DNA of 64,000 nt from Chloroflexia bacterium (GCA_035474135.1 DATINP010000044.1:4295-68294), one strand, 5' to 3'. Counted from the first letter of the stretch, positions 3,395-64,000 are shown. Made by a program: numbers and translations. Notes: generated from the letters alone by a model not told the origin.

Positions 3395-3438
3395 GACGTA
3401 TGACGCATGACGCATGACGCATGACGCATGACGTATGA
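3395..3438. repeat. (GACGYAT)6 tandem heptamer array
   Basis: gacgtat gacgcat x4 gacgtat read directly. Confidence 0.9.
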
Positions 3439-5529: not shown

Positions 5530-5559
5530 CCAGCAGGCGTCGTCCGTCGTCCGTCGTCC
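5484..5559. repeat. (GGACGAC)n / (GTCGTCC)n hairpin element spanning the aroC-aroK junction
   Basis: Left arm acggacgacggacgacggacgaccgacgacgg, 22-nt loop, right arm cgtcgtccgtcgtccgtcgtcc. Confidence 0.85.
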
Positions 5560-6097: not shown

Positions 6098-7234
6098 ATG
6101 CAGGACATACAAGCCGACACTATTCGAGTGCAGACGCTCGATGGAGGGTACGATATCGTGCTGGGGAACGGATTGCTTGAAAGTGTGGGAAGGCTGGCGA
6201 GCAAGTTGGGGCTGGGCCGGAGGGTGGTGGTCGCCAGCGACACAAATGTGGCTCCTCTGTATGCCGAGCGAGCTATCCAGCCGCTGAAAGGCGCTGGTTT
6301 CGACGCTACACTGGCGGTTATGCCTGCTGGCGAGAAGCATAAGCGGTGGCCGTCGGTCGAGATGTTCGTGGAGTCCTTTCTGGACGCTGGCCTCGACCGG
6401 GGAGGTTGGGTGGCGGCGCTGGGCGGGGGCGTGGTGGGCGACACTGCCGGGTTCGCCGCATCTGTCTACATGCGCGGGGTGGACTTTGTACAACTGCCAA
6501 CCAGCCTGCTGGCTATGGCCGATTCGAGCATCGGGGGCAAAGTGGGCGTGGACCACGAGCGTGGCAAGAACCTGCTTGGCGCGTTCAAACAGCCCCGACT
6601 GGTGGTGGCCGACCTGGACGTGCTGGCGACCCTGCCACAGAAAGAGGTCGCGTGCGGCATGGCCGAGGTGATCAAGGCAGAGGTGATAGGGGGAATTGAC
6701 GACGGACGACGGACGACAGACGACAGCAATCGACTAACGTCCTCGGTCGTCCGTCGTCCGTCGTCCGTCGTCTCTCCTACGATCTACGACTCGCTGCGCC
6801 GGGCTATCGAAGTGAAGCGAGGGATCGTGGAGCGCGACCCGCACGAGGCGGGGGAGAGGGCGCTGCTGAACCTGGGTCATACGTTCGGGCACGCTTTCGA
6901 GAAATGCACAGGGTATAATAGGCCTCACGGCTACGCGGTGGCGCAGGGGATGGTAGTGGCGTGCAGGCTGGCGGCGGCGCTCGGTATGTGCGACGAGGGG
7001 TTGGCTGAGAGCGTTGAGCGCGCGCTCGCAGCGTGGGACCTGCCCATCAGGTGGGGTGCGCCCGATCTTGAGGACGAGGGTGCTGTGGAGCGCGTGTGGG
7101 AGGCGATGAGGCTGGACAAGAAGCGCGTGGACGGGAGATTACGCTTGGTTTTGCCGGAGGCAATTGGCAGGGTGTGCATTGTTGACGATGCGCCCGAAGT
7201 TGTTATCAAGAGGGTATTGAGGGAGACGAAGTGA
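6098..7234 (+). CDS. aroB: 3-dehydroquinate synthase (carries an in-frame palindromic-repeat insertion)
   Basis: DHQS motifs [27 protein letters not shown]; residues DDGRRTTDD...[11 protein letters not shown] (nt 6698-6772) are encoded by a perfect heptamer hairpin element. Confidence 0.85.
6698..6772. repeat. (GGACGAC)n / (GTCGTCC)n perfect hairpin element inside aroB
   Basis: gacgacggacgacggacgacagacgac - 21-nt loop - gtcgtccgtcgtccgtcgtccgtcgtc; 75 nt, a multiple of 3. Confidence 0.9.
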
Positions 7235-23295: not shown

Positions 23296-23350
23296 GAGTT
23301 CTGAGTTCTGAGTTCTAGGGTAAACTTCTTTGTCGCTACAGAAATCGCGT
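23296..23350. repeat. (GAGTTCT)3 array plus degenerate TTTGTCGCTACAGAAA palindrome
   Basis: gagttctgagttctgagttct aggg taaacttctttgtcgctacagaaatcgcg. Confidence 0.75.
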
Positions 23351-25401: not shown

Positions 25402-25495
25402 GGAGTTCTGAGTTTTGAGTTCTGAGGGATTAGGGGTTAGTGATTCGTTATGCGTGGTCGGTCGTCGGTCGTCGGTCGTCCTCCTAACCCCTACG
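25402..25495. repeat. composite heptamer element: (GAGTTCT)3 + (GGGGTTA)2 + (GGTCGTC)3-4 + CCTAACCCCTAC
   Basis: Read directly between the cupin and Mo-subunit genes. Confidence 0.8.
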
Positions 25496-27744: not shown

Positions 27745-27840
27745 AATTCTGAGTGCTGAGTGACCAGTGCGTCATACGTTGTCAGTCGTCGGTCGTCCCG
27801 ACTTACGATCTAAGATCTATGATCTAAGATCTTAGACTCC
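27745..27840. repeat. composite element: GAGTGCT/GAGTGAC, GTCGTCG units and (GATCTAA)-type palindromic array
   Basis: ctgagtgctgagtgaccagtgcgtcatacgttgtcagtcgtcggtcgtcccgacttacgatctaagatctatgatctaagatcttagac. Confidence 0.75.
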
Positions 27841-30511: not shown

Positions 30512-31698
30512 CTTTGAGCGTCGCCTGTTTGGCTGGTTTCGTGCGCGATGAAAGTTTGCTTGCGGCCGGTGGCGGCGCGTGCGCCCGACAGTACGGCGAG
30601 GCCCGTGTTGCCCATGAACAACAACAGGGCGAACACACTCAAGAGGCCGCCCCACTGTCTGCCGTCCACCCAACCCAGCAAGTCGCTTGCCACGCGCAAG
30701 GCTAGAGCGGTATGCAGAAGCGCGAGGTGCGCGTAGAAGGCTTGTCTGTAAGGGACGCTCAGCCCGGTCACTGCGGGCAATATAATGGGAGCGTGAGCGA
30801 AGATCATAGACATTACGAAGCCCAGGAAGATCGAGTGCAGGAGGGCATCGTAGCGCGGACCTGCCGTGACCGCGCCGAACGCCAGAGCCAGCCCTCCCGC
30901 CACCAGCATCCAGGCGTAGCCCGCCAGCAGTCCTGTCGCGATGTAGCGGGTGAGGCCCTGGCCGCGCACGGTGCGGCGCGCGATATCGTAGCGCCCCAGC
31001 CACAGCGCCAGCGCCACCAACCCTACGCTCATAAGCCGGGTGCCCGCGTCCTGCCAGGGTACAGAGGTCGCCAATCCCCCTAAGAACACCGCTATTGCGG
31101 CCATGAACAGGGGACTGCTCGCGAGCGACCGTGGCAGCATCCGCGTCAGTTCCAGCCGCTCGCCTGCTATCGTTAGGATCAGGAAGCCCGCCCACCAGAG
31201 CGAGGTCTGGTAGATGGGCAGCCACACCAGCCACAGGATGTTACCGCACGCCCACACTACCGCGCCCAGAGCCATGGTCGCGATAAAGAGGGTGGGCTGT
31301 ACACGCAGCACCGACACATAAAGGACCACCAGCGTGATACTGCTCAGAGTAAGCAGCACAGGTCCGACGATCCCCAGTGGGTAAGGCATACCGAGCAGAA
31401 CCAGGAGCGCCACCACGCCTAGAGCACTCAACGCCGGTGCGACATATCCCCAGCCCTTACGCAGGGCCACAGCCCTCTCAAGGCCGATCACAGTGCCGAG
31501 AAAGCCGCCCACCATGAGCGCGCCATGCGCCCCGGGCAGAGTCGGGTTCAGCATGGGCAGGCTAAAGCCGAGCCGCATCAACCCGGCCCACATGGCCGCT
31601 ACCAGGGCGATCATGCCAAGTCCCATGAGTGGGAACCGCAAATGTGAAACGGTCATTGAAGTCCTTCTGGGGGAGAGGGGCGAGACATGATGCGTCAT
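30508..31698 (-). CDS. nnrS: NnrS-family membrane protein (NO-response)
   Basis: About 390 aa and 12 TM with conserved His; positioned directly downstream of nirK as in many denitrifiers. Confidence 0.5.
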   Translation of the reverse strand: MTHHVSPLSPRRTSMTVSHLRFPLMGLGMIALVAAMWAGLMRLGFSLPMLNPTLPGAHGALMVGGFLGTVIGLERAVALRKGWGYVAPALSALGVVALLVLLGMPYPLGIVGPVLLTLSSITLVVLYVSVLRVQPTLFIATMALGAVVWACGNILWLVWLPIYQTSLWWAGFLILTIAGERLELTRMLPRSLASSPLFMAAIAVFLGGLATSVPWQDAGTRLMSVGLVALALWLGRYDIARRTVRGQGLTRYIATGLLAGYAWMLVAGGLALAFGAVTAGPRYDALLHSIFLGFVMSMIFAHAPIILPAVTGLSVPYRQAFYAHLALLHTALALRVASDLLGWVDGRQWGGLLSVFALLLFMGNTGLAVLSGARAATGRKQTFIAHETSQTGDAQS

Positions 31699-31735
31699 GC
31701 GCTATGCGTCATGCGTCGTCTTAGTAACCCCTCGC
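31684..31735. repeat. (ATGCGTC)n array (reverse orientation of the GACGCAT family) plus TAACCCC unit
   Basis: gacatgatgcgtcatgcgctatgcgtcatgcgtcgtcttagtaacccctcgcc. Confidence 0.75.
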
Positions 31736-49969: not shown

Positions 49970-50059
49970 GAGGGGCGAGGGGTTAGGGGTTAGCAGAGAT
50001 ATGATGCGTCATACGCGTTTCGTCGGTCGTCGTACTAACCCCCAACCTCTCGCCCCTCG
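49970..50059. repeat. large composite palindrome: GGGGTTA arms enclosing GACGCAT and GTCGTCG units
   Basis: gaggggcgaggggttaggggttag ... atgatgcgtcatacgcgtttcgtcggtcgtcgtac taacccccaacctctcgcccctc. Confidence 0.8.
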
Positions 50060-50346
50060 TTAGCGAAGCGCCACCATCTCTCGAAGCGGGCTTGGTCCCA
50101 GGGGTCGAACACGATGGCTTGCATGTGGTATACGAGCGTGGGGGTGATCTGATAGCCGCCCGTCACGAACTCGACACCCTGTGCTGCCGCTTCGTCCTGC
50201 TCGATGTCCACCTCTTCGTATTCTATCTGCTCGGCCTTGAAATAGGCCACTGCCGCATCGCTGTCCTCGCACCATGAGCGCCTGTAAATTACTATCGGTC
50301 CCGACTGCATTTCTTCTCCCTGGTTGGTCGTGATTAGTGACGACAC
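50035..50346 (-). CDS. glutaredoxin-like (monothiol C-x2-S) protein
   Basis: IVIYRRSWCEDSDAAVAYF thioredoxin-fold N-terminus. Confidence 0.5.
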   Translation of the reverse strand: MSSLITTNQGEEMQSGPIVIYRRSWCEDSDAAVAYFKAEQIEYEEVDIEQDEAAAQGVEFVTGGYQITPTLVYHMQAIVFDPWDQARFERWWRFANEGREVGG

Positions 50347-50429
50347 GCGTCATGCGTCATCGCCTCGTAATCCCACGTGAACTTCATGATCCATCTTCGT
50401 TCGCCATGCATGACCCGTCACGCCGTCCA

Positions 50430-51902
50430 TCAAACGCTGACCACCGGCTCGAAGTTCTGGATGTCTTCTCGCGATCCGCCCTGTCCCTCGCCGTAGTGGG
50501 CATAGCTCTCTATGAAGTCAATGGATTGCAGCCATTTTACCATCTTGAAGCCTACCTGCGTCTCCACGCGCAGACGTAAAGGCGCGCCGTGGGGAACGGA
50601 TAGCGGCTCGTAGTTCATCTCGTAGGCCAGAATAGTCTGAGGCAGCCGCGCCATCTCAATGGGGAGCGACTCGTGGAAGGGACGGCCACGCGCGTCGAGG
50701 CCGATGGACACGAACATCATGTAGCGCGCGCCCGCCTTTGGGTGACAGCGGTTAAGGATGTCGCTCAACGCCACGCCTCCCCACTGGGCTGTACCTGTCC
50801 AGCCCTGAATGCAGTGGTGCTTGGTTATCTGTGTATGCTTGGTCATGGCTTGCAGGTCGGCCAGGGTCAGGTGCAGGGGCTTGTCCACGAGGCCCTTTAC
50901 TTCAAGTGCCCAGTCCTTGTATTCACTGTCTACCAACTGTTGGTACTGGGCGGTCTCGGGTGGGTAGCCGTTGAGGATCAAGGTAGGCGAGATTTCGTCG
51001 GGGCGGTAGGTCTGGCGCGAACGCATGCGAAGCGACAGCAACCGCAGGCCAGGCCTGATAATCCAGCCCAGGATGTGCTGTACGGTGCGAGGGGATTTGC
51101 GCGAGTACCAGGTCGTGATGCCCCAGATAACAATGCCTGCGGCGATGATTCCCAGGCCGATAGCGATAGCCAGACCCTGATCGTGGTCATGTTGGCCCAG
51201 CACGATGTTGCCCATGTTGTTGCCGAACCCCGTCAGCACGACCAGTGTGACGTGGATGGCGATAAAGACCAGGAAGGCCACCAGTCCAATGAAGTGGAGG
51301 CTGCGCGCGGTTTGCCTGCCGCCGAACAACCGGGCATACCAGGGGAATTGCGCCTCGACCGCGGGCGACTGGGCCGCGCCTGTCAATATCAGGAAGGGCG
51401 CGAGGATGAATATCACCCCGGCGTAGGCCAATTGCTGGAGCGGGTCGAAGGGCTGGAACGCATCGGGAGGCGGTACGCGGAAGCTCACGTAGCCCACGAG
51501 GGTGTCCCACGCCTCGGGGATGACCGACCACGAGGTGGGGATCAGGCGCGTCCAGCCGCCAGTAGCGAAAAGGAGGACGACGTAAATCAACCCGTTGAGC
51601 ACCCAGAAACCGAGCGCCGCGAAGTGCCAATGGCGACCCAACCCCAGGCTATTGCCAGGCTGGGCGATCAGGGGCGACCAGTCCTCCTCCTGTTCGCGAG
51701 CGATCCATGGTCGTTCAGGGTGGATCACTTTCTTAGTGAACTTGGCCCACTCTGTGCCAGGTATGCAGTGGTCATTCCAGTAGAGGCGGGGGTAGGCCGC
51801 CAATATCTGTATGCCCGCCCTGATGACGAAGCCTATCAGCAGAAAGTTCACCCAGTGGGCCATGCGTATCCATAGTGGGAAACCTTGTGCTGCATCGTTC
51901 AT
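50430..51902 (-). CDS. fusion of membrane cytochrome b-type domain (MsrQ/YedZ-like) with sulfite-oxidase-family molybdopterin oxidoreductase (MsrP/YedY-like)
   Basis: N-terminal 5-6 TM with conserved His; C-terminal HHCIQGWTG and NYEPLSVPHGAPLRLRV Moco-binding signatures. Confidence 0.7.
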   Translation of the reverse strand: MNDAAQGFPLWIRMAHWVNFLLIGFVIRAGIQILAAYPRLYWNDHCIPGTEWAKFTKKVIHPERPWIAREQEEDWSPLIAQPGNSLGLGRHWHFAALGFWVLNGLIYVVLLFATGGWTRLIPTSWSVIPEAWDTLVGYVSFRVPPPDAFQPFDPLQQLAYAGVIFILAPFLILTGAAQSPAVEAQFPWYARLFGGRQTARSLHFIGLVAFLVFIAIHVTLVVLTGFGNNMGNIVLGQHDHDQGLAIAIGLGIIAAGIVIWGITTWYSRKSPRTVQHILGWIIRPGLRLLSLRMRSRQTYRPDEISPTLILNGYPPETAQYQQLVDSEYKDWALEVKGLVDKPLHLTLADLQAMTKHTQITKHHCIQGWTGTAQWGGVALSDILNRCHPKAGARYMMFVSIGLDARGRPFHESLPIEMARLPQTILAYEMNYEPLSVPHGAPLRLRVETQVGFKMVKWLQSIDFIESYAHYGEGQGGSREDIQNFEPVVSV

Positions 51903-51920
51903 GTTTGTATCTCCAGGAGT

Positions 51921-52043
51921 GGGTGATCGGTGACCGGTGAGCGGTGACCAGGGACCAGTGACCAGTGACCAGTGACCAGGGTTAGTAGGACAACAGATGA
52001 CGTATCACGTATCACTACTGGCCACTGGTCACTGGTCACTCAC
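51921..52043. repeat. (GTGACCR)n / (TGGTCAC)n long hairpin element
   Basis: About 8 GTGACC-type heptamers at 51921-51979, 40-nt centre, (CTGGTCA)3 at 52019-52043. Confidence 0.85.
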
Positions 52044-53722
52044 ATCTCCCCCAGCCTCATATTCTCGGCGTTGTCTATCGGCACCTCGATCAGGGTGGGT
52101 TCGTCCATGTCGAGGGCGCGGCGGAGCAGGGGTGCGAAGTCCTCTGCCTGTTCCACTCGCCAGGCGGGGATGCCGAACGAGCTTGCATATTGCACCAGAT
52201 CGGGGTTGGTGAAGTCTACACCAAAGGTGCGTCCGAAGCGGCGCTTCTGGTTTAGCTCGATCACGCCGTAATGTCCGTCGGTCCACACCACGTTCACGTA
52301 GGGCAGGCGGAGGCGGTGGGCCGTCTCCAACTCCTGAGAGTTCATCATGAAGCCGCCGTCGCCGCTCACCGCCACCACCTTGCGGTCCGGCAGAGCGAGT
52401 TTCGCCGCCAACCCACCAGGCACCGCGATGCCCATCGTGGCGAAGCCGTTGGAGATGATCACGGTGTTGGGGCGGGCGGCGGGGTAGAGGAGGGACAGCC
52501 ATAACTTGTGCGCGCCCACGTCGCTTACCAGGATGTCATCGTCGCCGAGCGCCTGCCTGATCTCCCACACCACTCTTTGCGGCTTCACGGGCATACTGCT
52601 GTCCGTTGCGTAGCTTTGCAGGCCGGATAGTGCGCTCTCTTCGCCCTGCTCGGGCTGACTGTTGGCCCCTTTCCACCACGAATGTGCGCGTTCCCGGCAC
52701 AGGCCGGCCAGGGCTTGCAGAGCATGAGCGATCTCGCCCACTACTTCCAGCGCGGGCAGGTAATGGCCATCGATCTCGGCAGGGGTGCTGTCAACGTGGA
52801 TGATTTCTTTGTCGCGGTGCGGGTTCCATAGCACGGGTGACCACTCCACAAGGTCGTACCCTACGGTCATCACGAGGTCGGCTTCGGCCAGTTGGGGAAC
52901 GGCGGCCAGGTCAGCGCCGGGTCTTTGCAGACCTACGGTGGCGAGGGAGTGGGGGTCGCGGTAGTCGATGCACCCCTTGCCCATGTAGGTATGGGCTACG
53001 GGCAAATCGAGCGCGTGGATCATGGCGACGAGGGCGTCGGCGGCCCCATGCCCGCTGGCCTGCCTGCGCACGACCCCGTTGCCCACCAGCACAAGGGGGC
53101 GTTTTGCACGACATAGGAGTTCCGCCGCCTTTTCCAACACGGCAGGCCCCGCCTGCGGGTAGGTAGTGCGGCGTATGGGCATTGGCTCGGTATCGGGTGG
53201 GACTGGAGTGGAGGCCACGTCCTCGGGCAGTTCGAGGTGGGTGGCGCCCGGCTTTTCGAGCCGCGCCAGCCGGAAGGCCTTGCGCACCATCTCGGGTACG
53301 GCTTCAGGTTGTTCTATGCGGGCGTTCCACTTGGTGATGGGCCGGAGCATCTGCACCACGTCAATGTACTGGTGCGACTCTTTATACACGCGCTCGAGGC
53401 CCGCCTGCCCTGTGATCGCCACGAGGGGGGCGCGGTCGAGGTTGGCGTCTGCTATGCCCGTAATGAGGTTGGTCGCGCCCGGGCCGAGAGTCGCCAGGCA
53501 CACGCCGGGGTAGGTGGTAAGGCGTCCGTACACATCGGCCATGAATGCGGCACCCTGCTCGTGGCGGGTGGTAATGAACTTGATACTTTTGCTGTGCGAA
53601 AGGGCGTCGAGCAGGTCGAGAATTTCCTCGCCCGGCACGCCGAAGACGTACTTGACGCCTTCGTTTTCAAGGCAGCGCACCAAAAGTTCGGCGGCGTTGG
53701 TAGGATCTTTCATAAGGGTCAT
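52040..53722 (-). CDS. alsS: acetolactate synthase-type thiamine-diphosphate enzyme
   Basis: TPP-enzyme N-terminal (YVFGVPGEEILDLLDAL), central and C-terminal TPP-binding (GDGGFMMN) domains; start at MTLMKDP. Confidence 0.65.
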   Translation of the reverse strand: MTLMKDPTNAAELLVRCLENEGVKYVFGVPGEEILDLLDALSHSKSIKFITTRHEQGAAFMADVYGRLTTYPGVCLATLGPGATNLITGIADANLDRAPLVAITGQAGLERVYKESHQYIDVVQMLRPITKWNARIEQPEAVPEMVRKAFRLARLEKPGATHLELPEDVASTPVPPDTEPMPIRRTTYPQAGPAVLEKAAELLCRAKRPLVLVGNGVVRRQASGHGAADALVAMIHALDLPVAHTYMGKGCIDYRDPHSLATVGLQRPGADLAAVPQLAEADLVMTVGYDLVEWSPVLWNPHRDKEIIHVDSTPAEIDGHYLPALEVVGEIAHALQALAGLCRERAHSWWKGANSQPEQGEESALSGLQSYATDSSMPVKPQRVVWEIRQALGDDDILVSDVGAHKLWLSLLYPAARPNTVIISNGFATMGIAVPGGLAAKLALPDRKVVAVSGDGGFMMNSQELETAHRLRLPYVNVVWTDGHYGVIELNQKRRFGRTFGVDFTNPDLVQYASSFGIPAWRVEQAEDFAPLLRRALDMDEPTLIEVPIDNAENMRLGEM

Positions 53723-53988
53723 AGATCTTAGGTCTAAGTCATGAGCTATGCATGACTTGTCCTGTATTGAAGGTTGGGTAGTTGATACTAACAGTATACA
53801 TCCGTTGGGGATGGCGAACGAGGAAGGGGAGGTCAGAGACCCGGCTATACGTTGACGTGACCACATCGTCTGGTGTGAAGTGGGCCTTTCTGTTATGATT
53901 TTGCTGACTAGTGGATCACTTGTGGCGTATGACGCATGACATACGAGCTGCGGCTTCTATTTTCTCCCAGAAAGACAGGTACAACTAC

Positions 53989-56019
53989 ATGGCTGACAAT
54001 GTGACTACCAAGATTATCAAGTCCCACTTGATGGGGGGCGATCTCGTGCCGGGACAAGAGATAGCATTGAGGGTAGATCAGACCCTGCTGCAGGACGCCA
54101 CGGGCACGATGGCCTCTTTACAGTTCGAAGAGCTGGGGATCCAGCGCGTATCGGTACCGCTCGCGGTGCAATACGTGGATCACAACATGATCGCGCTCGA
54201 CTTCAAGAACCCCGACGATCATCGCTTCTTGCAGTCCTTTGCGGCCAGATACGGTCTGCACTTTTCGCACCCCGGCAACGGCATCTCGCACTATGTCCAC
54301 CTGGAGCGTTTCGGCAAGCCGGGAGCCGTGATGGTCGGAGCCGACAGCCACACCACCACCGCGGGCGCTCTCGCTATGATCGCTATCGGGGCGGGGGGTC
54401 TCGATGTGGCCGTGTGCATGTCGGGCCAGGCCTTCGAGTTCGAGAGCCCCCTTATCGTGGGGGTCGAGTTGCGCGGCCACCTGTCGCCGTGGGTGCAGGC
54501 CAAGGACGTGATCCTCGAACTGCTGAGGCGGCGCGGGGTGCGTAACGGCCTGGGCCGCATATTCGAGTTCTATGGCGAGGGCGTCGCCACTCTGAACGTG
54601 ACCCAGCGCGGCACGATCTGCAATATGATTGTCGAGATGGGCGCGACCACAGGCCTGTTCCCCTCGGACGAGCAAACCCGCGAATGGCTCGAGTTCCAGC
54701 AGAGGCCCGGCGACTGGACAGAGCTCGTGGCCGACGAAGGCGCCACCTACGACGAGTACGAGTTGATAGAATTGGACAAACTGGAACCCCTGATCGCCAA
54801 ACCTTCCAGCCCCGGCAACGTGGTGCCCGTACGTGAAGTGGCCGGAATCCCGGCGGCGCAGGTGTGCGTCGGCTCGTCGGTCAATTCGGGTTACCAGGAC
54901 CTGGCGATAGTGGCGGCGGTGTTGCGTGACAAGTCGGTGGCCGAAAGTGTGGTGATGACGGTTACTCCCGGCTCGCGCCAGATCCTCTCTACGTTGACCC
55001 GGAGCGGCATTTACAACGACCTGATGGTGGCGGGCGGACGTATGCTCGAGCCGGCGTGCGGGCCGTGCGTAGGCATGGGGCAGGCGCCGCCCTCGGGTGC
55101 TGCTTCGGTGCGCACCTTCAACCGCAATTTCCCGGGACGCAGCGGCACACAGAACGACCAGGTTTACCTGTGCAGTCCGGCTACCGCGGCGGCCACTGCC
55201 CTCTATGGCGTGATTACCGACCCTCGCGACCTGGGAGTGGAGGAGCCTACATTCCCACCGCCGGTGTTCGACCCCGCAGCGGGCGCACGCCAGATCACCC
55301 CGCCCATACCGGCGGAAGAGGCTCGGTCTATCGTGATCTCGCGCGGGCCGAACATCAAGCCACCCCCGGCGGAGACTCCCCTATCCGAATCGCTGGAAGG
55401 GTGCGTACTGATCGTCGTTGGCGATGATATATCAACTGGCGACCTGTCGCCCGATGGGGCTGAGGTGATGGCCTTCAGGTCGAACGTGGCCGCTATGTCG
55501 AAGTTCGTATTCCGCCGTATTGACCCAGATTTCGCGTCGCGGGCGCAAGAGTGGGGAGGCGGATTTATCGTGGGAGGGCACAATTACGGGCAAGGGTCTT
55601 CACGCGAGCATGCAGCGCTGGCTCCCAAGCAGTTGGGGGTGCGGGCCGTGATAGCCCGGAGCTTTGCGCGCATCCATCGCCGTAACCTGATAGCCCAGGG
55701 CATACCACCACTCAGCTTTGTTGACGACGCCGGCTATGATCTGGCGTGTCAGGGCGACAGGTGGGAGATCCCGGGCATCCGAGAGGCACTGGCAAATGGG
55801 CGTGAGGAGATCACTGTTCGGATTGCCGAACGAGGGGTGGAATTCAAGCTACAACTTCACTTCTCGCCGCGAGAGCGCGAGGTGCTGCTGAGCGGGGGCT
55901 TGCTGGCGCACATCCGCGAGGGTGGCGGCAATCTCAGTGCAGGCCAGGCGGTCAGCGCCGCCGTAGATCAGGGCTCGCCCTTCAATAATCCCCTGCCGCA
56001 AGAGCCTCCTGTGGCTTAA
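53989..56019 (+). CDS. aconitase-family hydratase/dehydratase
   Basis: GADSHTTTAGA, CGPCVGMGQ, SGTQND and swivel-domain GHNYGQGSSREHAAL motifs; start at MADNVTT. Confidence 0.65.
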   Translation: MADNVTTKIIKSHLMGGDLVPGQEIALRVDQTLLQDATGTMASLQFEELGIQRVSVPLAVQYVDHNMIALDFKNPDDHRFLQSFAARYGLHFSHPGNGISHYVHLERFGKPGAVMVGADSHTTTAGALAMIAIGAGGLDVAVCMSGQAFEFESPLIVGVELRGHLSPWVQAKDVILELLRRRGVRNGLGRIFEFYGEGVATLNVTQRGTICNMIVEMGATTGLFPSDEQTREWLEFQQRPGDWTELVADEGATYDEYELIELDKLEPLIAKPSSPGNVVPVREVAGIPAAQVCVGSSVNSGYQDLAIVAAVLRDKSVAESVVMTVTPGSRQILSTLTRSGIYNDLMVAGGRMLEPACGPCVGMGQAPPSGAASVRTFNRNFPGRSGTQNDQVYLCSPATAAATALYGVITDPRDLGVEEPTFPPPVFDPAAGARQITPPIPAEEARSIVISRGPNIKPPPAETPLSESLEGCVLIVVGDDISTGDLSPDGAEVMAFRSNVAAMSKFVFRRIDPDFASRAQEWGGGFIVGGHNYGQGSSREHAALAPKQLGVRAVIARSFARIHRRNLIAQGIPPLSFVDDAGYDLACQGDRWEIPGIREALANGREEITVRIAERGVEFKLQLHFSPREREVLLSGGLLAHIREGGGNLSAGQAVSAAVDQGSPFNNPLPQEPPVA

Positions 56020-56025
56020 TACAGT

Positions 56026-57220
56026 CTAGAGCGTGTTATGAACTATGAGCAATGAAATGGGCGAGTTGAACGAAACGAGCAGCCGTCAGAATAGCGAAGG
56101 CAACCAAATCAACCCTGCCAGCGTTTCGGGCAACCGCTCGTAGTCACGCTCCAGCCGCCGAAAGCGTGCCGCCCACGCGAAACTGCGCTCTGCCACCCAC
56201 CTACGGGGCAGCAGCACGAACCCTCTCTTTGCCCCGCCGGCTATCCGGCCCCGGCCAGGTGCTCCAGCCGGGAAACCATCATGTGATCGAGATCCGTCGG
56301 GTAGACCACGCCGTGGGCCTGGGCTAGCTCAGACGCCAATTCCCGGTAGAAGTCGACGATGAGACCGGCTGCCTTAAGCATGGCGCTTCGTTCCAACGGA
56401 CACAAGGTCGATGCCAACGGCGCCAGTTGACTGACGGGAAGTGCGTATTCCACCTTTTCATAACCATCGAGCGCCGCCGCGGGGTTGTGACGCAGGCGAG
56501 CCAGATCCACACAGGTGCGCCGCATTTCATCCAGATATCCGTAGGCGCCCCATAGTTCGCCGCGGGCCAACGGTGTGATGAAATGGTGGGACAGGTCATG
56601 CCAGAACCAGTAGATCTGGCGGTGTACCGTCGCGCGCTGCGCCGCGGGGTCCACGGTGGGCTCGGGGAACACGGCGCTCGCCAGTATACCCTGCTTGTCC
56701 AGCAGGACCCGATACGGGCCGGTATGGATATGCGCGAAGTGGCTCTCCTGGCCCAGCGCAAGCTCGCCCTCAACCCCATCGGGAAAGATGAAGAAAAGCA
56801 CATCGGCGCCGGAACCGTTCCAGTCTTCCAGGAACAGTGGGACGCCCAGCACGCGGATAAAAGCCTCGCGCTCGGCGAAGAAGTCGGCATAGGCCGCGTC
56901 GGTGGTGATCAGGCCGAGATCCAGGTCTGAGTAGGCGTCGGCCGTGCCCCGCGCATAGGAGCCACCAAGAAAGGCCGCCACCACTCGCGCATCGGCCCGG
57001 CACGCGGCGACAAAGCGATTCAGGACCTCCTGGTAGTTCGGCGGCAGGGCTGCTTCGGGTGCATCCATGATATGGGTTCTCCTCTGGCTATTCTTTAGTC
57101 GCCGTGCCGCCGGCAAAGGCATCTCGCTCCGTGGCTATGCTTTCGACACTTTCATTGTAATGGCTGGGCGTTTCGTTCAACTTGCTCGCCTACTTGCCGA
57201 ATGTTCATAACACGCTCTAG
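56026..57220. mobile_element. inverted-repeat-flanked cassette (non-autonomous) carrying a nucleotidyltransferase gene
   Basis: Perfect 18-bp terminal inverted repeats CTAGAGCGTGTTATGAAC (56026-56043) and GTTCATAACACGCTCTAG (57203-57220), extended imperfectly to about 50 bp (shared GGCGAG..TTGAACGAAACG); no transposase inside. Confidence 0.45.
56241..57068 (-). CDS. nucleotidyltransferase (Pol-beta superfamily; ANT/Lnu-like)
   Basis: [21 protein letters not shown] nucleotidyltransferase motif; start at MDAPEAAL. Confidence 0.6.
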
Positions 57221-58770
57221 GGCTCGTTGTCCTTGGGTTGCACGAACGTGCCGTCTTTGTAGATCAGCCTGTGCCGGGATGTCGGGTGAGCACGCTGTTG
57301 TTCGGCGTGTCGTTCGCGCTGGGCGCGGCTGCTGCGGAGCAGTTGCTTGATGAAGCGCTGCGCCCAGGGGGTCACGTCGTATTCCCTCAGCCTGTTCTGC
57401 ATCGACCTGTTGCGGCGAATCTGCTCACTGGTGGGCGTTTCCAGCGCGGTAAGCAGGGCTTCGGCGATTTCCTCTTTGCTGTTGGGGTTGATCTGCACTG
57501 CCTCGGTTAATTCGTTAGCCGCGCCCGCGAAGATGCTAAGGACGAGCACACCCGTGCTGTCGGTACGGCAGGCGAGATACTCTTTCGAGATCAGGTTCAT
57601 GCCGTCGCGCAGGGGAGTGACCAGCGCCACGTCGCCCATGCTGTACAGGGTCACAAGAGGCACGAGCGGGATGAAGGCGTACTGGTATCGTATGGGTACC
57701 CAGCCGATGTTGCCGAATTCGCCGTTGATCTGGCCCACCATAGTCTCGATCTGCGTCTTAGTCTCAGAATAGTGTTGCACACCTACTCTGGAAGGGGTCA
57801 CCACCAGCGCAAGCACTACCTTCTCATGCCAGTTGGGGTTCTGCTCCAGAAACAACTCGTACCCGCGCAGACGGTTGACTATGCCCTTGGTGTAATCGAG
57901 CCTGTCTATGGAGAGGACGAGCCTGCAGCCTTGCAGGGTGCTCTTGAGGTCGGCCTTGGCCCGCTGCACTTCGTCGCTAACGGCGGCCTGGGCGTACTTC
58001 TCGTAGTCGATGCCCATCGGGTAGGTGCCCGCGCTCACGATGCGGTCGCCCACGCTGATACCCGCTTCTGAGTGCTTGTATCCGAGCATGCGCGTCACGG
58101 TATCGATGAAGTGGTCGGTGTAGTCTTTCGAGTGGAAACCGACCACGTCCGATCCCAGCAGGCCGTTGAGTATCTGTTGTCCCCAGGTGCGGGGCATCAT
58201 CCTGAAAAGCTCGTAGCCGGGGAAGGGGATGTGGAGGAAGAAGCCGATGGGCGTATCGGGTAGTTGCTCACGCAGGAGGCCGGGCAACAGCATCAGGTGG
58301 TAATCGTGCACCCACACGATGTCGCCCGGCTTTACGACCTTCATGACCGCGTCGCAGAACTGGCGGTTCACCTCTTTGTAGACAGACCAATACTCCTCGT
58401 CGTAGGCCACATAGGCCTGAAAATAGTGGAATAGAGGCCAGATGGTCCTGTTGCAAAAGCCCTGGTAGAACTGGTTCATCTCCTCGTCAGTGAGGTAGAC
58501 GGGGTGGGCGTTAAAGCGCGTCTCTGCAACGCTTTCCAGTTCCCCCCGCAACTCGGACGGCACCGAAATGCCGGGCCACCCGATCCAGGCATAGCTGTAT
58601 GTGCGGCGCGATCCGAGCGTGGCGAGCCAGGCACTTAATCCCGAAACCAATCCGCCCCCGCTCTGCTCGAAACTGAGCACATCACCATCTCTGCTTACCG
58701 TGAAAGGCAGCCTGTTGGACACTATGATGACCCGTTGTTCGGCGGGTTGTTGCTCGGGTTGAGCAGGCAT
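57217..58770 (-). CDS. otsA: alpha,alpha-trehalose-phosphate synthase
   Basis: GT20 OtsA signatures (VVSNRLP, IWPLFHY, VWVHDYHLMLLP, GFFLHIPFP). Confidence 0.9.
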   Translation of the reverse strand: MPAQPEQQPAEQRVIIVSNRLPFTVSRDGDVLSFEQSGGGLVSGLSAWLATLGSRRTYSYAWIGWPGISVPSELRGELESVAETRFNAHPVYLTDEEMNQFYQGFCNRTIWPLFHYFQAYVAYDEEYWSVYKEVNRQFCDAVMKVVKPGDIVWVHDYHLMLLPGLLREQLPDTPIGFFLHIPFPGYELFRMMPRTWGQQILNGLLGSDVVGFHSKDYTDHFIDTVTRMLGYKHSEAGISVGDRIVSAGTYPMGIDYEKYAQAAVSDEVQRAKADLKSTLQGCRLVLSIDRLDYTKGIVNRLRGYELFLEQNPNWHEKVVLALVVTPSRVGVQHYSETKTQIETMVGQINGEFGNIGWVPIRYQYAFIPLVPLVTLYSMGDVALVTPLRDGMNLISKEYLACRTDSTGVLVLSIFAGAANELTEAVQINPNSKEEIAEALLTALETPTSEQIRRNRSMQNRLREYDVTPWAQRFIKQLLRSSRAQRERHAEQQRAHPTSRHRLIYKDGTFVQPKDNEP

Positions 58771-58789
58771 TTGGTTGCTCCGAGGGGCG

Positions 58790-58880
58790 TAGGTCGTGCG
58801 TCATGAGTAATTCTCTTTTGTCGCGACAAAAGAGCGCCTAGCTTATACAGAACAAGTTCTCATGACATATGACGTATGGC
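58790..58880. repeat. composite: GACGCAT-type units flanking a perfect 22-bp palindrome CTCTTTTGTCGCGACAAAAGAG
   Basis: Palindrome at 58813-58834; flanks cgtcatgag ... ctcatgacatatgacgtatg. Confidence 0.85.
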
Positions 58881-58887
58881 CGCGCAC

Positions 58888-61392
58888 TCACGGCCCGTAA
58901 ATCTGCCGGTATAGCTGTGTACCTAGAAGGCCGAGTTGTACCTCGAAGGGGGTGCCTGCCTGCTCCGGGTGTAGCTCAAAGCGATTGCGCTCGAAGTATT
59001 GCACGGTGTAGTCTTTGCCGTCTATGGGGTTGGTCTCGGTGCGTTCCTCGGTTATGGGGTAGCCGAACACCGGCAGGCCGCCGGTGGCGTTCCAGTATGC
59101 GAGGAAGGTGGGTGACACGTTATGTCCGGTCTCGGTGAAGAAGGTGTAGCCCTCTTTCTGCTGGGCCGGCGGCTCAGGTTCCTGCACGAGCGCGCCCAGC
59201 CTACCCAGCACCACCTGGTTGCCTGTTGATGGGTGCTGCTCGAAACGCGCCCGCTCGAAGTACTGGGCGGTATATGTCTCGCCTGTGTCCTTGTTTGTCT
59301 CCTGCACGAGGTCAGAGATAGGGTAACCAAACAAGCCCAACGCGCCGTTATCCTGCCAGTACTTCAGGAAGGGCTGGCTCACGAAGTAACCCGTTTCGGG
59401 AAAGTAGACGTGGTCAGCATCGGGCGCTATGGCCGAGAAGGTCCACTGCGACGAATGTGTGCTCGAGTCAGCCCTCACGAGGTCGAGGCGCAGGGTATGT
59501 GGTCCGGCAGCGACGGCGGGCGATGTGGCGCTGGCCCTGAACCTGTTCTCGGCATCGCTCACGGGCGCTATCTGTGTGTCCAGCGCCTTGCCGTCGAGCA
59601 TGATGGTGGCGCTAAGGGGAGATTGCGTGTCGGTAATGTCCACGCTCACCGCGACCTCACCCGCACCGGCCTGCACCAGGCCACCGGGAGAGGGGCGCAT
59701 GCGGGCGGTGTCCACGGGCGCGGCGGGTGGTGGCTGTGAGGTGGGTTGTGCGCCTGCCACAAGGGTGGGAGTGGGCGCAACAGCACGCGAATCGACGTTG
59801 AACCTCCACTGGGTACTCTTACGATCGCCGCTTTCTGTGACCGCGTTGATGCGGGCGGTGTGCGCGCCCAACGTCAGCCCGGTTACGTTCGCGGTGGCGG
59901 TCTGGGTCATGGGCGATGCACCGCTCAGTGTGGTTTCGAGCACGTTGCCGTCGAGGGTAATAGTGGCGCTGACGACGGGGCTGTTGGATGCGATCTGCAC
60001 GCTGATCGTCTGTGCGCCCAGCCCAATTATGTCTCCGTCGGCTGGGGTGAAGTTGTTGAAGGTGATAACCGCCTCGGGCGCGGTGGGTGGCTCCTGTAGG
60101 TCTACGGGGTCGGTGTGCAGAGCGATATTGCCCAGAATTGCCATACCGGCCAGCACAAGCACGACGGGTATGAGCGACGCCAACCAGCCGACCCAGCTTG
60201 CTCGTTTCTCGCCGGAGGCGGGGCCAAGCGCCTCCTCTACCTGGAACTGGCGGCCCGTATCCTCGAATAGCTGGAGTCGGGTGGGATTTATACTGCCCAC
60301 GAGGGTCTTATCATCTATCACCGCGATGTTCGGTACGTCGCCGGACGGCAGAGCGCTGCTCGCCATGTGCTTTTGTGCAACAGCCAGCACGTCCACCAGC
60401 GGTGTGTTGGGGCCAACCGAGTCGAGCGCATTGACAGGGGTGGTTATTGAGCGAACGGGAGTAGTGGGCCAGTTGCCTTGCAAGAGGGCATCGGTGGCGG
60501 CCAGTGTGGTAACGCCGTTGAGGTTCCCCTTGGTGTCCACAACAGCGAGGGGAGTATTGGGTGGGAAGCGTGGGTGGGCCTTGACCATCTGGGCTACAGT
60601 TTGCGACTCGTCGACAATATCGTCGGGCCTGCTGGTTTCCATCAGGTCGGTGGCTTTCAGTTGTAAGAATAGTTCGCGGAGGGCTTTGCGCTGGGTGCCG
60701 GCGGTGGCGGCTTCATTGGCGGCCCACGCTGCCACCACGAGGGCCAAGGCTTGCAGCCACACGTTGCTGGTGAGGCCGCGCCATGCCCCTGCAAGCACGA
60801 GCAGGAGAGTAGCGATCCTGCCTATAGACTGAGCGGCGCTCAACGCGGCTTCGCGGTCGTTCGAGAAGAAGTAGAGGGCCGCAGACAACGCCATGCCGCC
60901 ATCGAAGGGGCTGCCAGGTATGAGGTTGATCAGGCCCACCCAGATGTTGAGCCAGCCCAGTGGCACAAGCACGGCGGCCAGCCAGGCAAGCGCGTTGCCG
61001 GGACTCATGAGGGCGTTGCCCCCCAGCACGAGTATTCCACCCAATGCAAGGTTGAATATGGGCGCGGCCAGGGCCGCTACGATGGCGCGTACCAGCGTTA
61101 TGTCTTGCATCCTGAAGGAGGGTGCCGCGCCGAAGGGGAAGAAGGTTACATGGTGGGGAGATGTAGGGGCTATCAGTTCGTGTATAAACTCATGCGCGAT
61201 GACGCAGACCACGTAGAGCAAGACCACGATCACGGCAACCAGCCAGTAGAAATTGGATGCCCAACTGGGGAAGTTTTCGGGCAGCCAGAGCAGCGCCACC
61301 CACCATAGCACCAGTATGGAAGCAAAAATCCAGGTGTAGTGCAGACTGATTGTTAACGGTCCGATTCGTCCTAGCCTTAGCCCCGGTCGCAT
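58888..61392 (-). CDS. site-2 protease (M50) family metalloprotease with CBS pair and C-terminal Ig-like / LGFP-type repeats
   Basis: HEFIHEL HExxH in TM3, second zinc site PFDGG, CBS region, repeated GYP...QYFER LGFP-like units. Confidence 0.7.
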   Translation of the reverse strand: MRPGLRLGRIGPLTISLHYTWIFASILVLWWVALLWLPENFPSWASNFYWLVAVIVVLLYVVCVIAHEFIHELIAPTSPHHVTFFPFGAAPSFRMQDITLVRAIVAALAAPIFNLALGGILVLGGNALMSPGNALAWLAAVLVPLGWLNIWVGLINLIPGSPFDGGMALSAALYFFSNDREAALSAAQSIGRIATLLLVLAGAWRGLTSNVWLQALALVVAAWAANEAATAGTQRKALRELFLQLKATDLMETSRPDDIVDESQTVAQMVKAHPRFPPNTPLAVVDTKGNLNGVTTLAATDALLQGNWPTTPVRSITTPVNALDSVGPNTPLVDVLAVAQKHMASSALPSGDVPNIAVIDDKTLVGSINPTRLQLFEDTGRQFQVEEALGPASGEKRASWVGWLASLIPVVLVLAGMAILGNIALHTDPVDLQEPPTAPEAVITFNNFTPADGDIIGLGAQTISVQIASNSPVVSATITLDGNVLETTLSGASPMTQTATANVTGLTLGAHTARINAVTESGDRKSTQWRFNVDSRAVAPTPTLVAGAQPTSQPPPAAPVDTARMRPSPGGLVQAGAGEVAVSVDITDTQSPLSATIMLDGKALDTQIAPVSDAENRFRASATSPAVAAGPHTLRLDLVRADSSTHSSQWTFSAIAPDADHVYFPETGYFVSQPFLKYWQDNGALGLFGYPISDLVQETNKDTGETYTAQYFERARFEQHPSTGNQVVLGRLGALVQEPEPPAQQKEGYTFFTETGHNVSPTFLAYWNATGGLPVFGYPITEERTETNPIDGKDYTVQYFERNRFELHPEQAGTPFEVQLGLLGTQLYRQIYGP

Positions 61393-61406
61393 TTGTTAGT
61401 CCTCCC

Positions 61407-61475
61407 GTGTGAGTGAGTCGTAGATCTTCGATCGCAGATCGTAAGTCATGAGTGATGAGTGGCGAGTGATACGCC
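61407..61475. repeat. composite: GAGTGAT-type units plus GATCT palindromic stretch
   Basis: gtgtgagtgagtcgtagatcttcgatcgcagatcgtaagtcatgagtgatgagtggcgagtgatacgcc. Confidence 0.65.
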
Positions 61476-61689
61476 ATTCAATGAAGCGCTTCCGCTGTAT
61501 AGCGCCTTGCACGTTGCGTGCCAGTCAGTGGTACCATTATAACCGTAACGGGGATTATGACCAGAAAAGTAGGCGGGCTTCTATATGTGTCGTGCGACGA
61601 TTGGGACCATTTAGTCTTGATGAAAAAGCTATAACTGATACCTGGTTGGCATATTACTTACTAATCAGAACACCGAAGAGAGGGTAACG

Positions 61690-62175
61690 ATGATGTCTAT
61701 TCGTATTGGGAAGCCAAAACGCGCCCTGAGGTTCGCGCTGCGATTGCCTATTTCCCTGTATCACGCGGGGTTGGGCTTTCTACTTGACCACCGCTTTTTG
61801 CTCTTGACGCACCGGGGGCGCAAGTCGGGGAAACTTTATGAGACCGTACTAGAGGTGGTTGTGTACGACCGCGCCACGAACACCGGCTACGTGGTATCCG
61901 GTTGGGGGAACAAGGCCGACTGGTATCGTAATCTTGAGGTTGAGTCTGCGGTTCGGGTTCAGATGGGGCGGCAGGACTACGCGCCTGTACACCACTTCCT
62001 CACGCAGGAGGAGGCTGTGAGGGTGTGGACATCATTCCGCCACAAGCACCCCGTCGAGGAGCGCCTGGCGCTACGTCTCTTTTCACGCCCCGGCAGGACG
62101 TACAAGAACGCGGCCGATCGCCGCAAGGAGTTCCTGAGCGACGTGCTGATGGTGTCGTTCCGGCCCAAGGGGTGA
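61690..62175 (+). CDS. deazaflavin (F420)-dependent nitroreductase-family oxidoreductase (second paralog)
   Basis: THRGRKSGKLYETVL and ADWYRNL motifs of the Ddn/DUF385 family. Confidence 0.7.
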   Translation: MMSIRIGKPKRALRFALRLPISLYHAGLGFLLDHRFLLLTHRGRKSGKLYETVLEVVVYDRATNTGYVVSGWGNKADWYRNLEVESAVRVQMGRQDYAPVHHFLTQEEAVRVWTSFRHKHPVEERLALRLFSRPGRTYKNAADRRKEFLSDVLMVSFRPKG

Positions 62176-62243
62176 GCGGCATATTATTGCGTGCTGGTAG
62201 TGCCCCGACCCTTGGACAGAGGAGATCCTCTGTCAACCAATCC

Positions 62244-62280
62244 TAATACGCAAAAAAAGAACCCTGCTCAATAGCGGGGT
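62244..62280 (-). terminator. rho-independent terminator for csbD (bidirectional with upstream gene)
   Basis: Minus strand reads AGAACCCCGC-loop-AGGGTTCTTTTTTT; a 9-bp palindrome GACAGAGGAGATCCTCTGTC lies just upstream at 62210-62233. Confidence 0.55.
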
Positions 62281-62310
62281 TCTTCTCAAGTGTGTAGAAT
62301 TGGAGTAATT

Positions 62311-62532
62311 CTAGTTTGTTGCGTCGTCAATCGCGTTCTCGACGTTCCTCTTGGCATGGCCGAGTGCGCCCTCAACGTTGCCTTTGGCCTCGTTGAAATG
62401 CCCTGCTGCTTGCTTGCCCTCGCCTCTGGCCTCCTGGTCAACGTCGCCTGTTGCGCGGCCCACTTCTTCCTCGGCCTTACCGGCTGCCTGCTGAGCCTTG
62501 CCCTTCAGCTTGTCACCTAATCCGTCGGTCAT
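62311..62532 (-). CDS. CsbD-family general stress protein
   Basis: Lys/Gly/Ala/Glu-rich CsbD repeats (KGKAQQAAGKAEE...). Confidence 0.7.
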   Translation of the reverse strand: MTDGLGDKLKGKAQQAAGKAEEEVGRATGDVDQEARGEGKQAAGHFNEAKGNVEGALGHAKRNVENAIDDATN

Positions 62533-62863
62533 TGTTTTTCTCCTTTTGGTGATATGTCAGGCTAATACGTTAATCGCCGATCGACGGCTGTCGATCTGAA
62601 CTACGATACGGACAGGAAGCAACTTCCGTGCCTCGGCTTTGTGCGCGGCAAGCAATTCCTGCGTGTGGGACTATTGTCAACCCCCACAATAGGCCAAATG
62701 GGTCTATTCAAATGCGCCTGCCTGGGAGTATTATGCCTGCAAGGTGTCATAGTGACCCCTCTTTGATGCGTGTCATATACAGCGTGACCCATGTCTATGA
62801 CAACCGGATGTGTGCAAAGTTTCTAAACATTATACGTTCGAGCCTTCTTTGCGAATGTTTCAG

Positions 62864-64000
62864 ATGACTCTACAAAAGAAAACGCTACTTATTATCGCCC
62901 TAACCCTCGGCGTTCCGATCCTGGTCCTCTATTTTACTTCCCAGGCAATCGTGTTAGGGCGCTTTTCGAGCATCGAAAACGACGAGGCCGTCCAGAACAT
63001 CCAGCGCGTGCAAAGCGCCCTGGACGATGACCTGACCGCGTTGGAGAGCACTACCCGCGATTGGTCGATGTGGGATGACACTTTCCAGTTCATTGCCGAC
63101 CGCAACCAGGACTACATCGAGTCGAACCTTACTGGCTCCCTCGCAATGGACAATAATCGTCTGGACGTCATGCTCTTCTACGACGCACAGGGTAACGAGG
63201 TCTTTGCGAAAGCATCGGATTACCAGGGTGGGTCACAGACGCCTCAACCCACAAGCCTGCTGAGTCGGATTGGGCCGGACAGCCCCCTCTTGCAGCACAC
63301 GTCAGCCGCCAGTAGCATCAAAGGCCTGATTTCTCTGCCCGAAGGTGCTATGCTGCTTGCCTCGGAGCCGATCATGCACAGTTCGGGCGAGGGCGAAATA
63401 GGCGGCACACTTATCTTCGGGCGCTTTCTAAATACAGATGCCATCGAGCATCTGGCCAAGACCACCCTGATTGGTCTGTCACTTACGCCCCTCTCCTCTC
63501 TGTCAGCGAGCGAGGACCCTGAGGGTCCTGTACCCCAGCTGTCTGTGGAAGCGCCTATGCAACTCATAGCAAGAAGTGATGATAAGCTGGACGGCTACTA
63601 TTTACTCACCGACGTGTTAGGGAATCCGGCACTGGTACTTGAGGCCGAAATGCCTCGAGTGGTCTATAACAAGGGCGTGCAAAATCTGTACTCGTACTTG
63701 CTGATCCTGCTGACTGTAGGGATCTTGCTGGGAGTGGTCATGACGCTCCTTATGAAGCGGCTGGTGCTGTCCAGACTGGCGCTGCTCAGGCACGAAATGG
63801 GCAAAATCAGCCTCAGCAGCGACATATCCCACAGGGTCAACATGCCGGGCAAGGACGAGTTTTCCGACCTGTCTATATCAATCAACGATATGCTGGCGGC
63901 ACTGCATCGCTCGCGCGAGGAACAGTGGGAGAGCGAACAGCGCTACAAGGCAGTGGTCGAACAAACGCGAGAGGCAATCTTCCTCGTTGACGCGGTAACA
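62864..64000 (+). CDS. sensor signalling protein, N-terminal CHASE4-like periplasmic domain plus HAMP/PAS (3'-truncated by window end)
   Basis: TM1, periplasmic domain (DWSMWDDTFQFI...), TM2, HAMP-like linker, start of PAS (EQRYKAVVEQTREAIFLVD); open to end of window. Confidence 0.6.
   Translation, partial: MTLQKKTLLIIALTLGVPILVLYFTSQAIVLGRFSSIENDEAVQNIQRVQSALDDDLTALESTTRDWSMWDDTFQFIADRNQDYIESNLTGSLAMDNNRLDVMLFYDAQGNEVFAKASDYQGGSQTPQPTSLLSRIGPDSPLLQHTSAASSIKGLISLPEGAMLLASEPIMHSSGEGEIGGTLIFGRFLNTDAIEHLAKTTLIGLSLTPLSSLSASEDPEGPVPQLSVEAPMQLIARSDDKLDGYYLLTDVLGNPALVLEAEMPRVVYNKGVQNLYSYLLILLTVGILLGVVMTLLMKRLVLSRLALLRHEMGKISLSSDISHRVNMPGKDEFSDLSISINDMLAALHRSREEQWESEQRYKAVVEQTREAIFLVDAVT

Follow-up and report, generated by a model that had tools for sequence, protein, structure and literature searches.

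Composite transposons of the Tn5/Tn10 type consist of two inverted copies of an insertion sequence (IS) that bracket a cargo, often a resistance gene, and the equivalent outer ends of the two copies act together. In mobile insertion cassettes (MICs), IS-type inverted repeats (IRs) flank a passenger gene, there is no transposase, and the direct repeat is of the type of the parent IS; examples are MIC231 of Bacillus cereus, which belongs with IS231 of the IS4 family, and the qnrS2 cassette of Aeromonas plasmids (PMC3129680, PMC3281130, PMC5444012). The IS427 group of the IS5 family comprises elements of 832-865 bp with IRs of 13-21 bp, a direct repeat of 2 bp and one or two open reading frames (ORFs) (PMC3281130 Table 2), among them IS1248 and the ISPa/ISPaes elements of Paracoccus (PMC3281130).

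The segment described here, positions 56029-57217 of a 64-kb window (the whole stretch of DNA that was analysed), is in our judgement quite probably a decayed composite transposon, or mobile insertion cassette, derived from ISs of the IS5 family, IS427 group. Similar to Tn5- and Tn10-type transposons, it has a cargo bracketed by what appear to be two IRR-type IS fragments in inverted orientation, with equivalent ends facing outward; in contrast to them, both IS copies are truncated, to 204 and 64 bp, no transposase is left, and the copies are diverged rather than near-identical. The likeness to MICs lies in the IS-type IRs at both ends, the passenger gene unrelated to transposition, the lack of a functional transposase between the ends and a direct repeat such as the parent IS would leave; movement, as is presumed for MICs, would need a cognate IS in trans. 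Here, however, the parent would be an IS of the IS5 family, IS427 group, and not of the IS4 family, both arms appear to be right ends with transposase codons, and one location is known. With the ISs of the IS5/IS427 type the cassette shares the 15-nt IR, the TA duplication and a DDE_Tnp_1_2 C-terminus, the probable parents being ~860-890 bp long with one ORF or two overlapping ORFs, but it measures 1189 bp, is without the DUF4096 N-terminal domain and without two of the three catalytic acidic residues, and has a foreign gene aboard. This kind of element, IS ends with a passenger and without a transposase, is already known, and the cassette is a further example.

Terminal repeats, target site and flanking genes

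The preliminary description, made from the sequence of the window, had placed the segment between the convergent stop codons of an aconitase-family gene and otsA, and the ORFs confirm both stops (Table 1). Nothing but cassette DNA lies between them. Elsewhere the window contains tandem arrays of heptamers, at 3395-3438, 5484-5566, 6698-6781, 23296-23316, 25403-25480, 27807-27836, 31690-31717 and 51925-52040, in which, for example, (GACGACG)n faces (CGTCGTC)n and (GTGACCA)n faces (TGGTCAC)n. Several of these arrays are long perfect hairpins at gene ends, and we take them to resemble the STRR heptamer repeats of cyanobacteria.

Table 1. Features of the cassette and of the genes on either side (positions in the window)
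Feature	Position	Strand	Basis or remark
Aconitase-family gene	53911/53989-56019, stop 56017-56019		PF00330/PF00694
Left TA target-site duplication	56027..56028	.	sequence; 56026 = C of CTAG target
Left terminal 15-nt inverted repeat, GAGCGTGTTATGAAC	56029..56043	+	identical to tips of intact IS copies
Putative IS right-end fragment A (204 bp: IRR + last 63 transposase codons)	56029..56232	-	translation, Pfam, NCBIfam, homologues
Intact nucleotidyltransferase gene, 275 aa, predicted ANT(6)/Lnu(B) fold	56241..57068	-	PF04439, AlphaFold/Foldseek
Native upstream region of cargo gene (RBS AGGAG, probable own promoter), moved along with it	57069..57153	-	homology to nucleotidyltransferase loci elsewhere
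Putative IS right-end fragment B (64 bp: last ~19 transposase codons, FIVMAGRFVQLARLLAECS, + terminal IR)	57154..57217	+	codon alignment
Right terminal inverted repeat	57203-57217		within fragment B
Right TA target-site duplication	57218..57219	.	sequence; 57220 = G of CTAG target
otsA	57217-58770, stop 57217-57219	-	PF00982

The perfect 18-bp terminal IR that had been reported is present: CTAGAGCGTGTTATGAAC at 56026-56043 recurs in reverse complement, without a mismatch over its 18 nt, at 57203-57220. When the window was shuffled 40 times by a first-order Markov model, no inverted pair of 18-mers within 3 kb occurred (mean 0.0), and for 15-mers the mean number of such pairs in the same shuffles was 0.2. 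A longer, imperfect repeat had been proposed as well, and a repeat search extends the arms to 56026-56092 and 57154-57220, which is 67 nt at 76% complementarity. Both inner blocks to which the proposal referred, GGCGAG and TTGAACGAAACG, occur in both arms.

Arms of this kind might also belong to a structural palindrome, whether a terminator, a REP-like sequence or a product of chance, or to an integron-type cassette moved by site-specific recombination. Hairpin-forming heptamer arrays are indeed numerous in the window, and a tyrosine recombinase gene adjoins the nucleotidyltransferase gene at one other locus (L001). Such an explanation is nonetheless exceedingly improbable, given that IS ends and transposase codons can be recognised by homology in the arms, that the chance expectation from the Markov shuffles is essentially zero, and that neither the locus nor the window as a whole gave an Rfam match. 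The attC site of an integron gene cassette (RYYYAAC ... GTTRRRY) was looked for specifically; the hairpin that follows the gene in relatives, GTTAG...CTAAC, has the opposite order, and the copy in the window has lost it. The repeats are those of a transposon family, and a palindromic family unrelated to mobility, which the preliminary description had raised as a counter-reading, was not seen.

The 18-nt repeat can be resolved into the 15-nt IS tip GAGCGTGTTATGAAC, a TA target duplication and the outer C or G of a CTAG, because the tip matches the ends of intact ISs. The absence of a target-site duplication, as first described, is therefore not upheld: TA stands on both sides of the element, at 56027-28 and 57218-19, inside a CTAG target. 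Both this 2-bp duplication (TA/TA) and the length of the IR (15 nt) are those of the IS427 group, and the related elements L014, L004, L005 and L027 (see below) are all flanked by TA, usually in a CTAG context and also in GTAG or TTAA.

The right IR overlaps the otsA stop, as had been stated, the repeat running from 57203 to 57220 and the stop occupying 57217-57219. This minus-strand TAG is made up of the TA at 57218-57219 and base 57217, the first base of the element. In-silico removal of 56029-57219, i.e. the element and one TA, restores ...TAAtacagtCTAGggctc and leaves the otsA stop unchanged, and the convergent stops of the aconitase-family gene and otsA would have stood 6 nt apart before insertion. 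OtsA is unaltered, since its TAG consists of the duplicated TA and the first base of the element, and the original CTAG supplies a TAG without the element. The CTAG target of the putative insertion is thus the otsA stop codon, kept intact. OtsA of the window is a synthase-only protein of 517 aa, as are its closest relatives (517-524 aa); most other OtsA homologues are synthase-phosphatase fusions of ~735 aa. The insertion is not the cause of the short form.

Transposase remnants and related insertion sequences

According to the preliminary description the segment contained only a nucleotidyltransferase gene, but both arms also hold transposase codons. In the left arm (fragment A), 56036-56232(-) encodes the 63 C-terminal codons of a transposase, with a TAA stop at 56036-56038 inside the terminal repeat and a frameshift caused by a 1-nt deletion near 56100. 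The remnant matches Pfam DDE_Tnp_1_2 (PF13586) at 3.5e-10 and NCBIfam transpos_IS5_3 at 1e-10, the latter over model positions 210-257 of 258. It is 69-85% identical in amino acids to other transposase C-termini, including those of Ktedonobacterales and Anaerolineales metagenome-assembled genomes (MAGs), which are its nearest named relatives, and 75-77% identical in nucleotides to the IS copies on two metagenome contigs, L027 and L028. The best 120 protein matches to the remnant are all 61-112 aa long, and right-end fragments of this IS427-group lineage seem to be common. A search of plasmids with the cassette matched the transposase remnant only (query 6-222), annotated as 'IS5 family transposase', and found no cargo gene.

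The right arm (fragment B) reads as transposase codons at 57154-57210(+), with a stop at 57208-57210. It can be aligned to fragment A codon by codon without indels; the 22 codons compared comprise 8 identical ones, 3 with synonymous differences and 11 replacements, mostly conservative. In a search of the window with a profile of 116 transposase C-termini, the frame of the right arm came third among 2266 six-frame segments (E 0.23, weak alone), preceded only by the two frames of the left remnant. The cassette does not encode a complete DDE transposase (DUF4096 + DDE_Tnp_1_2) but only the 63 frameshifted codons and the other ~19; it is a non-autonomous derivative and not an IS, because only C-terminal transposase codons remain. 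Neither a cognate transposase nor a further copy of the ends was found in the 64-kb window.

The arms could instead be the two ends of a single IS (IRL...IRR) at the otsA stop, in which the central ~600 bp of the transposase gene were replaced by the nucleotidyltransferase module, for example in an abortive gap repair with template switching. This was our first model. It takes the right arm to be an IRL, so that the IRL of the parent would carry the GTTGAACGAAACG block. The right arm does have TTCGG..AGTA..AGTTG in common with the IRL of L027, its ..GAA.CG.CCCAGC resembles the first codons of the L027 transposase, and a microhomology of 2-4 nt can be read at both junctions. Against this, the right arm aligns with the IRR of L027 at a score of 18 and with its IRL at 7; its scores with the IRR of L028 and with the left arm are 10 and 15, and no IRL end of any element exceeds 7. 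Beyond nt 15 the two arms are 63% identical without gaps, compared with 31-38% between IRL and IRR of four intact family members, whose resemblance is confined to the first 15-36 nt. The right arm can also be translated, in one frame and with no indels, as the C-terminus of a transposase that ends at a stop inside the IR. The IRR scores, the inner identity of 63% and the in-frame codons led us to drop the model, which we now consider very unlikely.

Taken together, these comparisons suggest that the arms are the outward-facing right ends of two related, diverged IS copies. Two IRR ends would therefore explain the unusually long, imperfect repeat of ~67 nt.

Parent-like elements were sought with the tip pattern in 185,579 species genomes. 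An intact element of 874 bp in Paracidovorax cattleyae (L014), with a transposase of 270 aa and TA flanks, carries the tip GAGCGTGTTATGAAC at both ends, as does a degenerate copy of 862 bp with TA flanks in Noviherbaspirillum humi (L005). An element of 886 bp in an Armatimonadaceae MAG (L004), with a transposase of 263 aa, has the identical tip at its IRR and one mismatch at its IRL. A closer relative than these was found by a protein search with the transposase remnant, namely the element on L027, ~860 bp long with two overlapping ORFs that have the DUF4096 and DDE domains, and a tip with one mismatch. Overall the parent-like elements are 862-886 bp long and encode DDE transposases of 263-270 aa or in two ORFs. 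Since size, IR length, 2-bp direct repeat and number of ORFs agree with those tabulated for the group (PMC3281130), we assign the ends to the IS5 family, IS427 group.

The scan also gave MITEs and solo ends in other taxa. Two MITE-like elements with the same tips lie in Chloroflexota MAGs, one of 175 bp with TA flanks and one tip identical to GAGCGTGTTATGAAC (L011 4258-4432), the other of 123 bp with TA on one side only (L012 275-397). The copy on L028 (150-533) has lost its 5' part, so that only ~390 bp from the 3' end of the IS are left. The Chloroflexota elements and the Ktedonobacterales and Anaerolineales relatives of the transposase remnant hint at a host among the Chloroflexota.

The nucleotidyltransferase gene in the cassette and elsewhere

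The cargo was first described as a Pol-beta-superfamily nucleotidyltransferase (NTase) with the motif GGSYARG...DLDL, and both the ORF and the Pfam search bear this out. The 275-aa protein matches PF04439 over positions 4-277 of 279 (1.1e-11; 44.8 bits, cut-off 22), and the motif has the G-S-x11-D-x-D pattern. The AlphaFold model (pLDDT 85), for which 23 homologues were used, is by Foldseek closest to ANT(6)-Ib (8vxb, E 1.3e-10), LinB (3jyy, TM 0.68-0.70) and the ANT(6) of B. subtilis (2pbe). The protein thus has in common with the ANT(6) streptomycin adenylyltransferases and Lnu(B)/LinB the Pol-beta motif, the full-length PF04439 match and, as predicted, the two-domain fold. It differs from them in being only 15-19% identical to the solved enzymes, in falling below the family cut-offs and in belonging to a large environmental family.

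With the curated models of antimicrobial resistance (AMR) families the protein scored 33 bits for Lnu(F) (cut-off 450), 15.5 for Lnu(B) (525), 14.8 for ANT(6) (420) and 18.9 for ANT(4')-II (350), below every cut-off by a wide margin. Because all of these failed, the relation to resistance is a fold-level resemblance only: of the resemblance to aminoglycoside and lincosamide nucleotidyltransferases that had been proposed, the fold (8vxb, 3jyy) and the motif stand, and membership of a curated family does not. A sequence search of the PDB with the protein gave marginal matches only (E 0.05), and an exact look-up returned no identical record. Metagenomes hold 1169 matches to the family, and of the 120 listed most are 59-69% identical and ~277 aa long; a separate metagenome scan with the protein returned only relatives at 43-53%. 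PADLOC gave only weak matches to the NTase core, which lend no support to a role in a defence system.

The gene is under purifying selection, as judged from a dN/dS of about 0.3 against its relatives (0.28-0.30; 0.28-0.38 among copies), to which the window copy is no exception. Its expression is plausible, even probable on the layout of the locus, because the gene follows otsA in the same orientation and has retained its own RBS together with 85 nt of the DNA native to its upstream side. The promoter scan found no sigma-70 consensus site, and there is no predicted terminator between otsA and the NTase gene.

The gene also occurs outside the cassette. Positions 56230-57150 of the window are 88-89% identical in nucleotides to NTase loci in at least four other genomic contexts, and the gene itself occurs in them at 88-92%: L001 (9833-11018), beside a contractile-injection-system cluster and the gene of a tyrosine recombinase; L002 (9828-10961), with L021-23, where its neighbours are an MFS transporter gene on one side and a DinB-family gene on the other; L020 (2830-4011); and L024 (894-1761), with L025. 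Their flanks are unrelated and their homology breakpoints differ and are nested. Around the NTase gene in these four contexts neither IS ends nor inverted repeats were found. The first ~22 nt of the L001 tyrosine recombinase gene are present in L020 as well.

Homology to these loci spans 56230-56235 to 57150, and the junctions between IS and gene module are sharp, at 56232/56233 and ~57153/57154, each resolved to ~5 nt. The module between them, 56233-57153, comprises 921 bp, of which 85 nt precede the gene and 8 nt follow it. In relatives, a hairpin with a 16-nt stem, GGCCAAGGGCGGTTAG / CTAACCGCCCTTGCCC, lies at the end of the gene and overlaps the NTase stop codon (L002 10819-10872; also L001 and L020); in the window copy it is truncated by the IS junction.

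Divergence at synonymous sites sets the NTase gene apart from its hosts. Between the window and contig SRR21359886_39, of which L002 and L029 are two parts and which is syntenic with window 50035-64000, dS is 0.26 for the NTase gene and 1.75 for a syntenic GGDEF gene; for otsA against MAG GCA_040004735.1 it is 1.58. Across at least five contexts the NTase dS is 0.12-0.31, and host genes are saturated. A dS of 0.26, against ~1.7 in host genes, implies that the NTase gene was exchanged much later than the hosts diverged, and thus moved horizontally.

The site in relatives and the origin of the cassette

The preliminary description had suggested comparing the region between the aconitase-family gene and otsA among relatives. 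In both SRR21359886_39 and GCA_040004735.1, whose OtsA is 76% identical, a TPP-enzyme gene follows otsA directly, and window 53699-57325, a span that besides the cassette takes in the aconitase-family gene and the diverged 3' end of otsA, has no counterpart. A structure fixed at the orthologous site in all relatives, which had been named as possible counter-evidence, is accordingly not seen. The NTase gene of SRR21359886_39 is on the same contig but on the other side of otsA, at a distance of ~15 kb. By their gene tables, contigs of JGI sample 3300048101 encode an OtsA at 99% and an NTase at 95% identity in the same gene order, with one spacing equal (148 nt) and another of 222 versus 221 nt. 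This gene order and spacing indicate that the cassette is common to close strains. Absent from the syntenic relatives and shared by close strains, it is neither ancient and fixed nor private to one genome. The exact empty site (aconitase-TAAtacagtCTAG-otsA) was not recovered among the syntenic relatives, because these are also without the aconitase-family gene.

This aconitase-family gene (window 53699-56025; 676-702 aa), missing from both syntenic relatives, has no IS ends around it; it was either gained in this lineage or lost from the relatives. A further indel lies nearby: L029 2507-7169 compared with window 61410-62249 has ~4.7 kb extra, which encode an ABC transporter pair, a member of the beta-lactamase family and an acetyltransferase.

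The TA duplication is no proof of a single insertion, because a preference for CTAG/TA would give two independent insertions the same outer C-TA...TA-G. The NTase gene may have arrived by another route, two IS copies then inserting independently at flanking CTAGs and being truncated from inside, so that the segment never moved as a unit. Besides the outer flanks, this is in keeping with the divergence of the arms (63% inner identity), which on this account were never identical copies, with the one genomic location known for the cassette (no second copy at a different location was found among the NTase relatives) and with the occurrence of the NTase gene elsewhere without IS ends. It requires, however, two oriented insertions that exactly bracket the gene, two deletions and an earlier arrival of the gene that is left unexplained; syntenic relatives are without the gene at the site; only cassette DNA lies between the stops; and excision gives a single CTAG, which then stands 6 nt away from the stop of the aconitase-family gene. 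We consider this account unlikely. Insertion as a unit is favoured because it explains the arrival of the gene, the presence of cassette DNA alone between the stops and the restoration of a single CTAG on excision.

A composite-transposon origin of the cassette is, from the structure of its ends, the most likely. Two diverged IS copies would once have bracketed the NTase gene in inverted orientation, with their right ends outward, and illegitimate deletions would then have taken the inner parts of both, leaving 204 bp and 64 bp of right ends around the 921-bp gene module. The DDE transposase of a cognate IS, acting in trans, would recognise the 15-nt tips, cut there and insert the cassette at TA, usually in CTAG, duplicating the TA. 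The cassette would in this way have entered the CTAG that holds the otsA stop, 6 nt from the convergent stop of the aconitase-family gene. The order of these events, transposition as a unit, mobilisability at the present day and the substrate of the enzyme are what we infer from the structure of the locus. The original proposal of a non-autonomous transposable cassette or relic transposon, MITE-like with cargo, is retained, on the strength of IS427-type tips, the lack of a functional transposase and the NTase cargo, and is amended to include the TA duplication, the transposase remnants, two right ends and a resemblance to resistance enzymes at the level of fold.

A further reading goes beyond the origin of the element: the NTase family might be an unnamed aminoglycoside or lincosamide resistance determinant, shuffled among soil bacteria (probably Chloroflexota/Ktedonobacteria-like) and caught in becoming transposable through IS427-group ends. 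The occurrence in at least five contexts at dS 0.12-0.31, purifying selection and the ANT(6)/LinB fold make this compatible with the evidence, and we hold it to be doubtful. If true, an environmental resistance gene would here be seen early in its mobilisation. Should the enzyme modify antibiotics, the locus would be a record of how a resistance gene from the environment is mobilised in phyla other than the usual clinical ones; failing that, the cassette would be an ordinary transposon relic. Such cassettes are rarely annotated as what they are, because gene callers give 'nucleotidyltransferase' and perhaps 'partial transposase'. The locus offers a clean, dissected case in which a chromosomal accessory gene appears to have been packaged between IS ends with the host protein unchanged.
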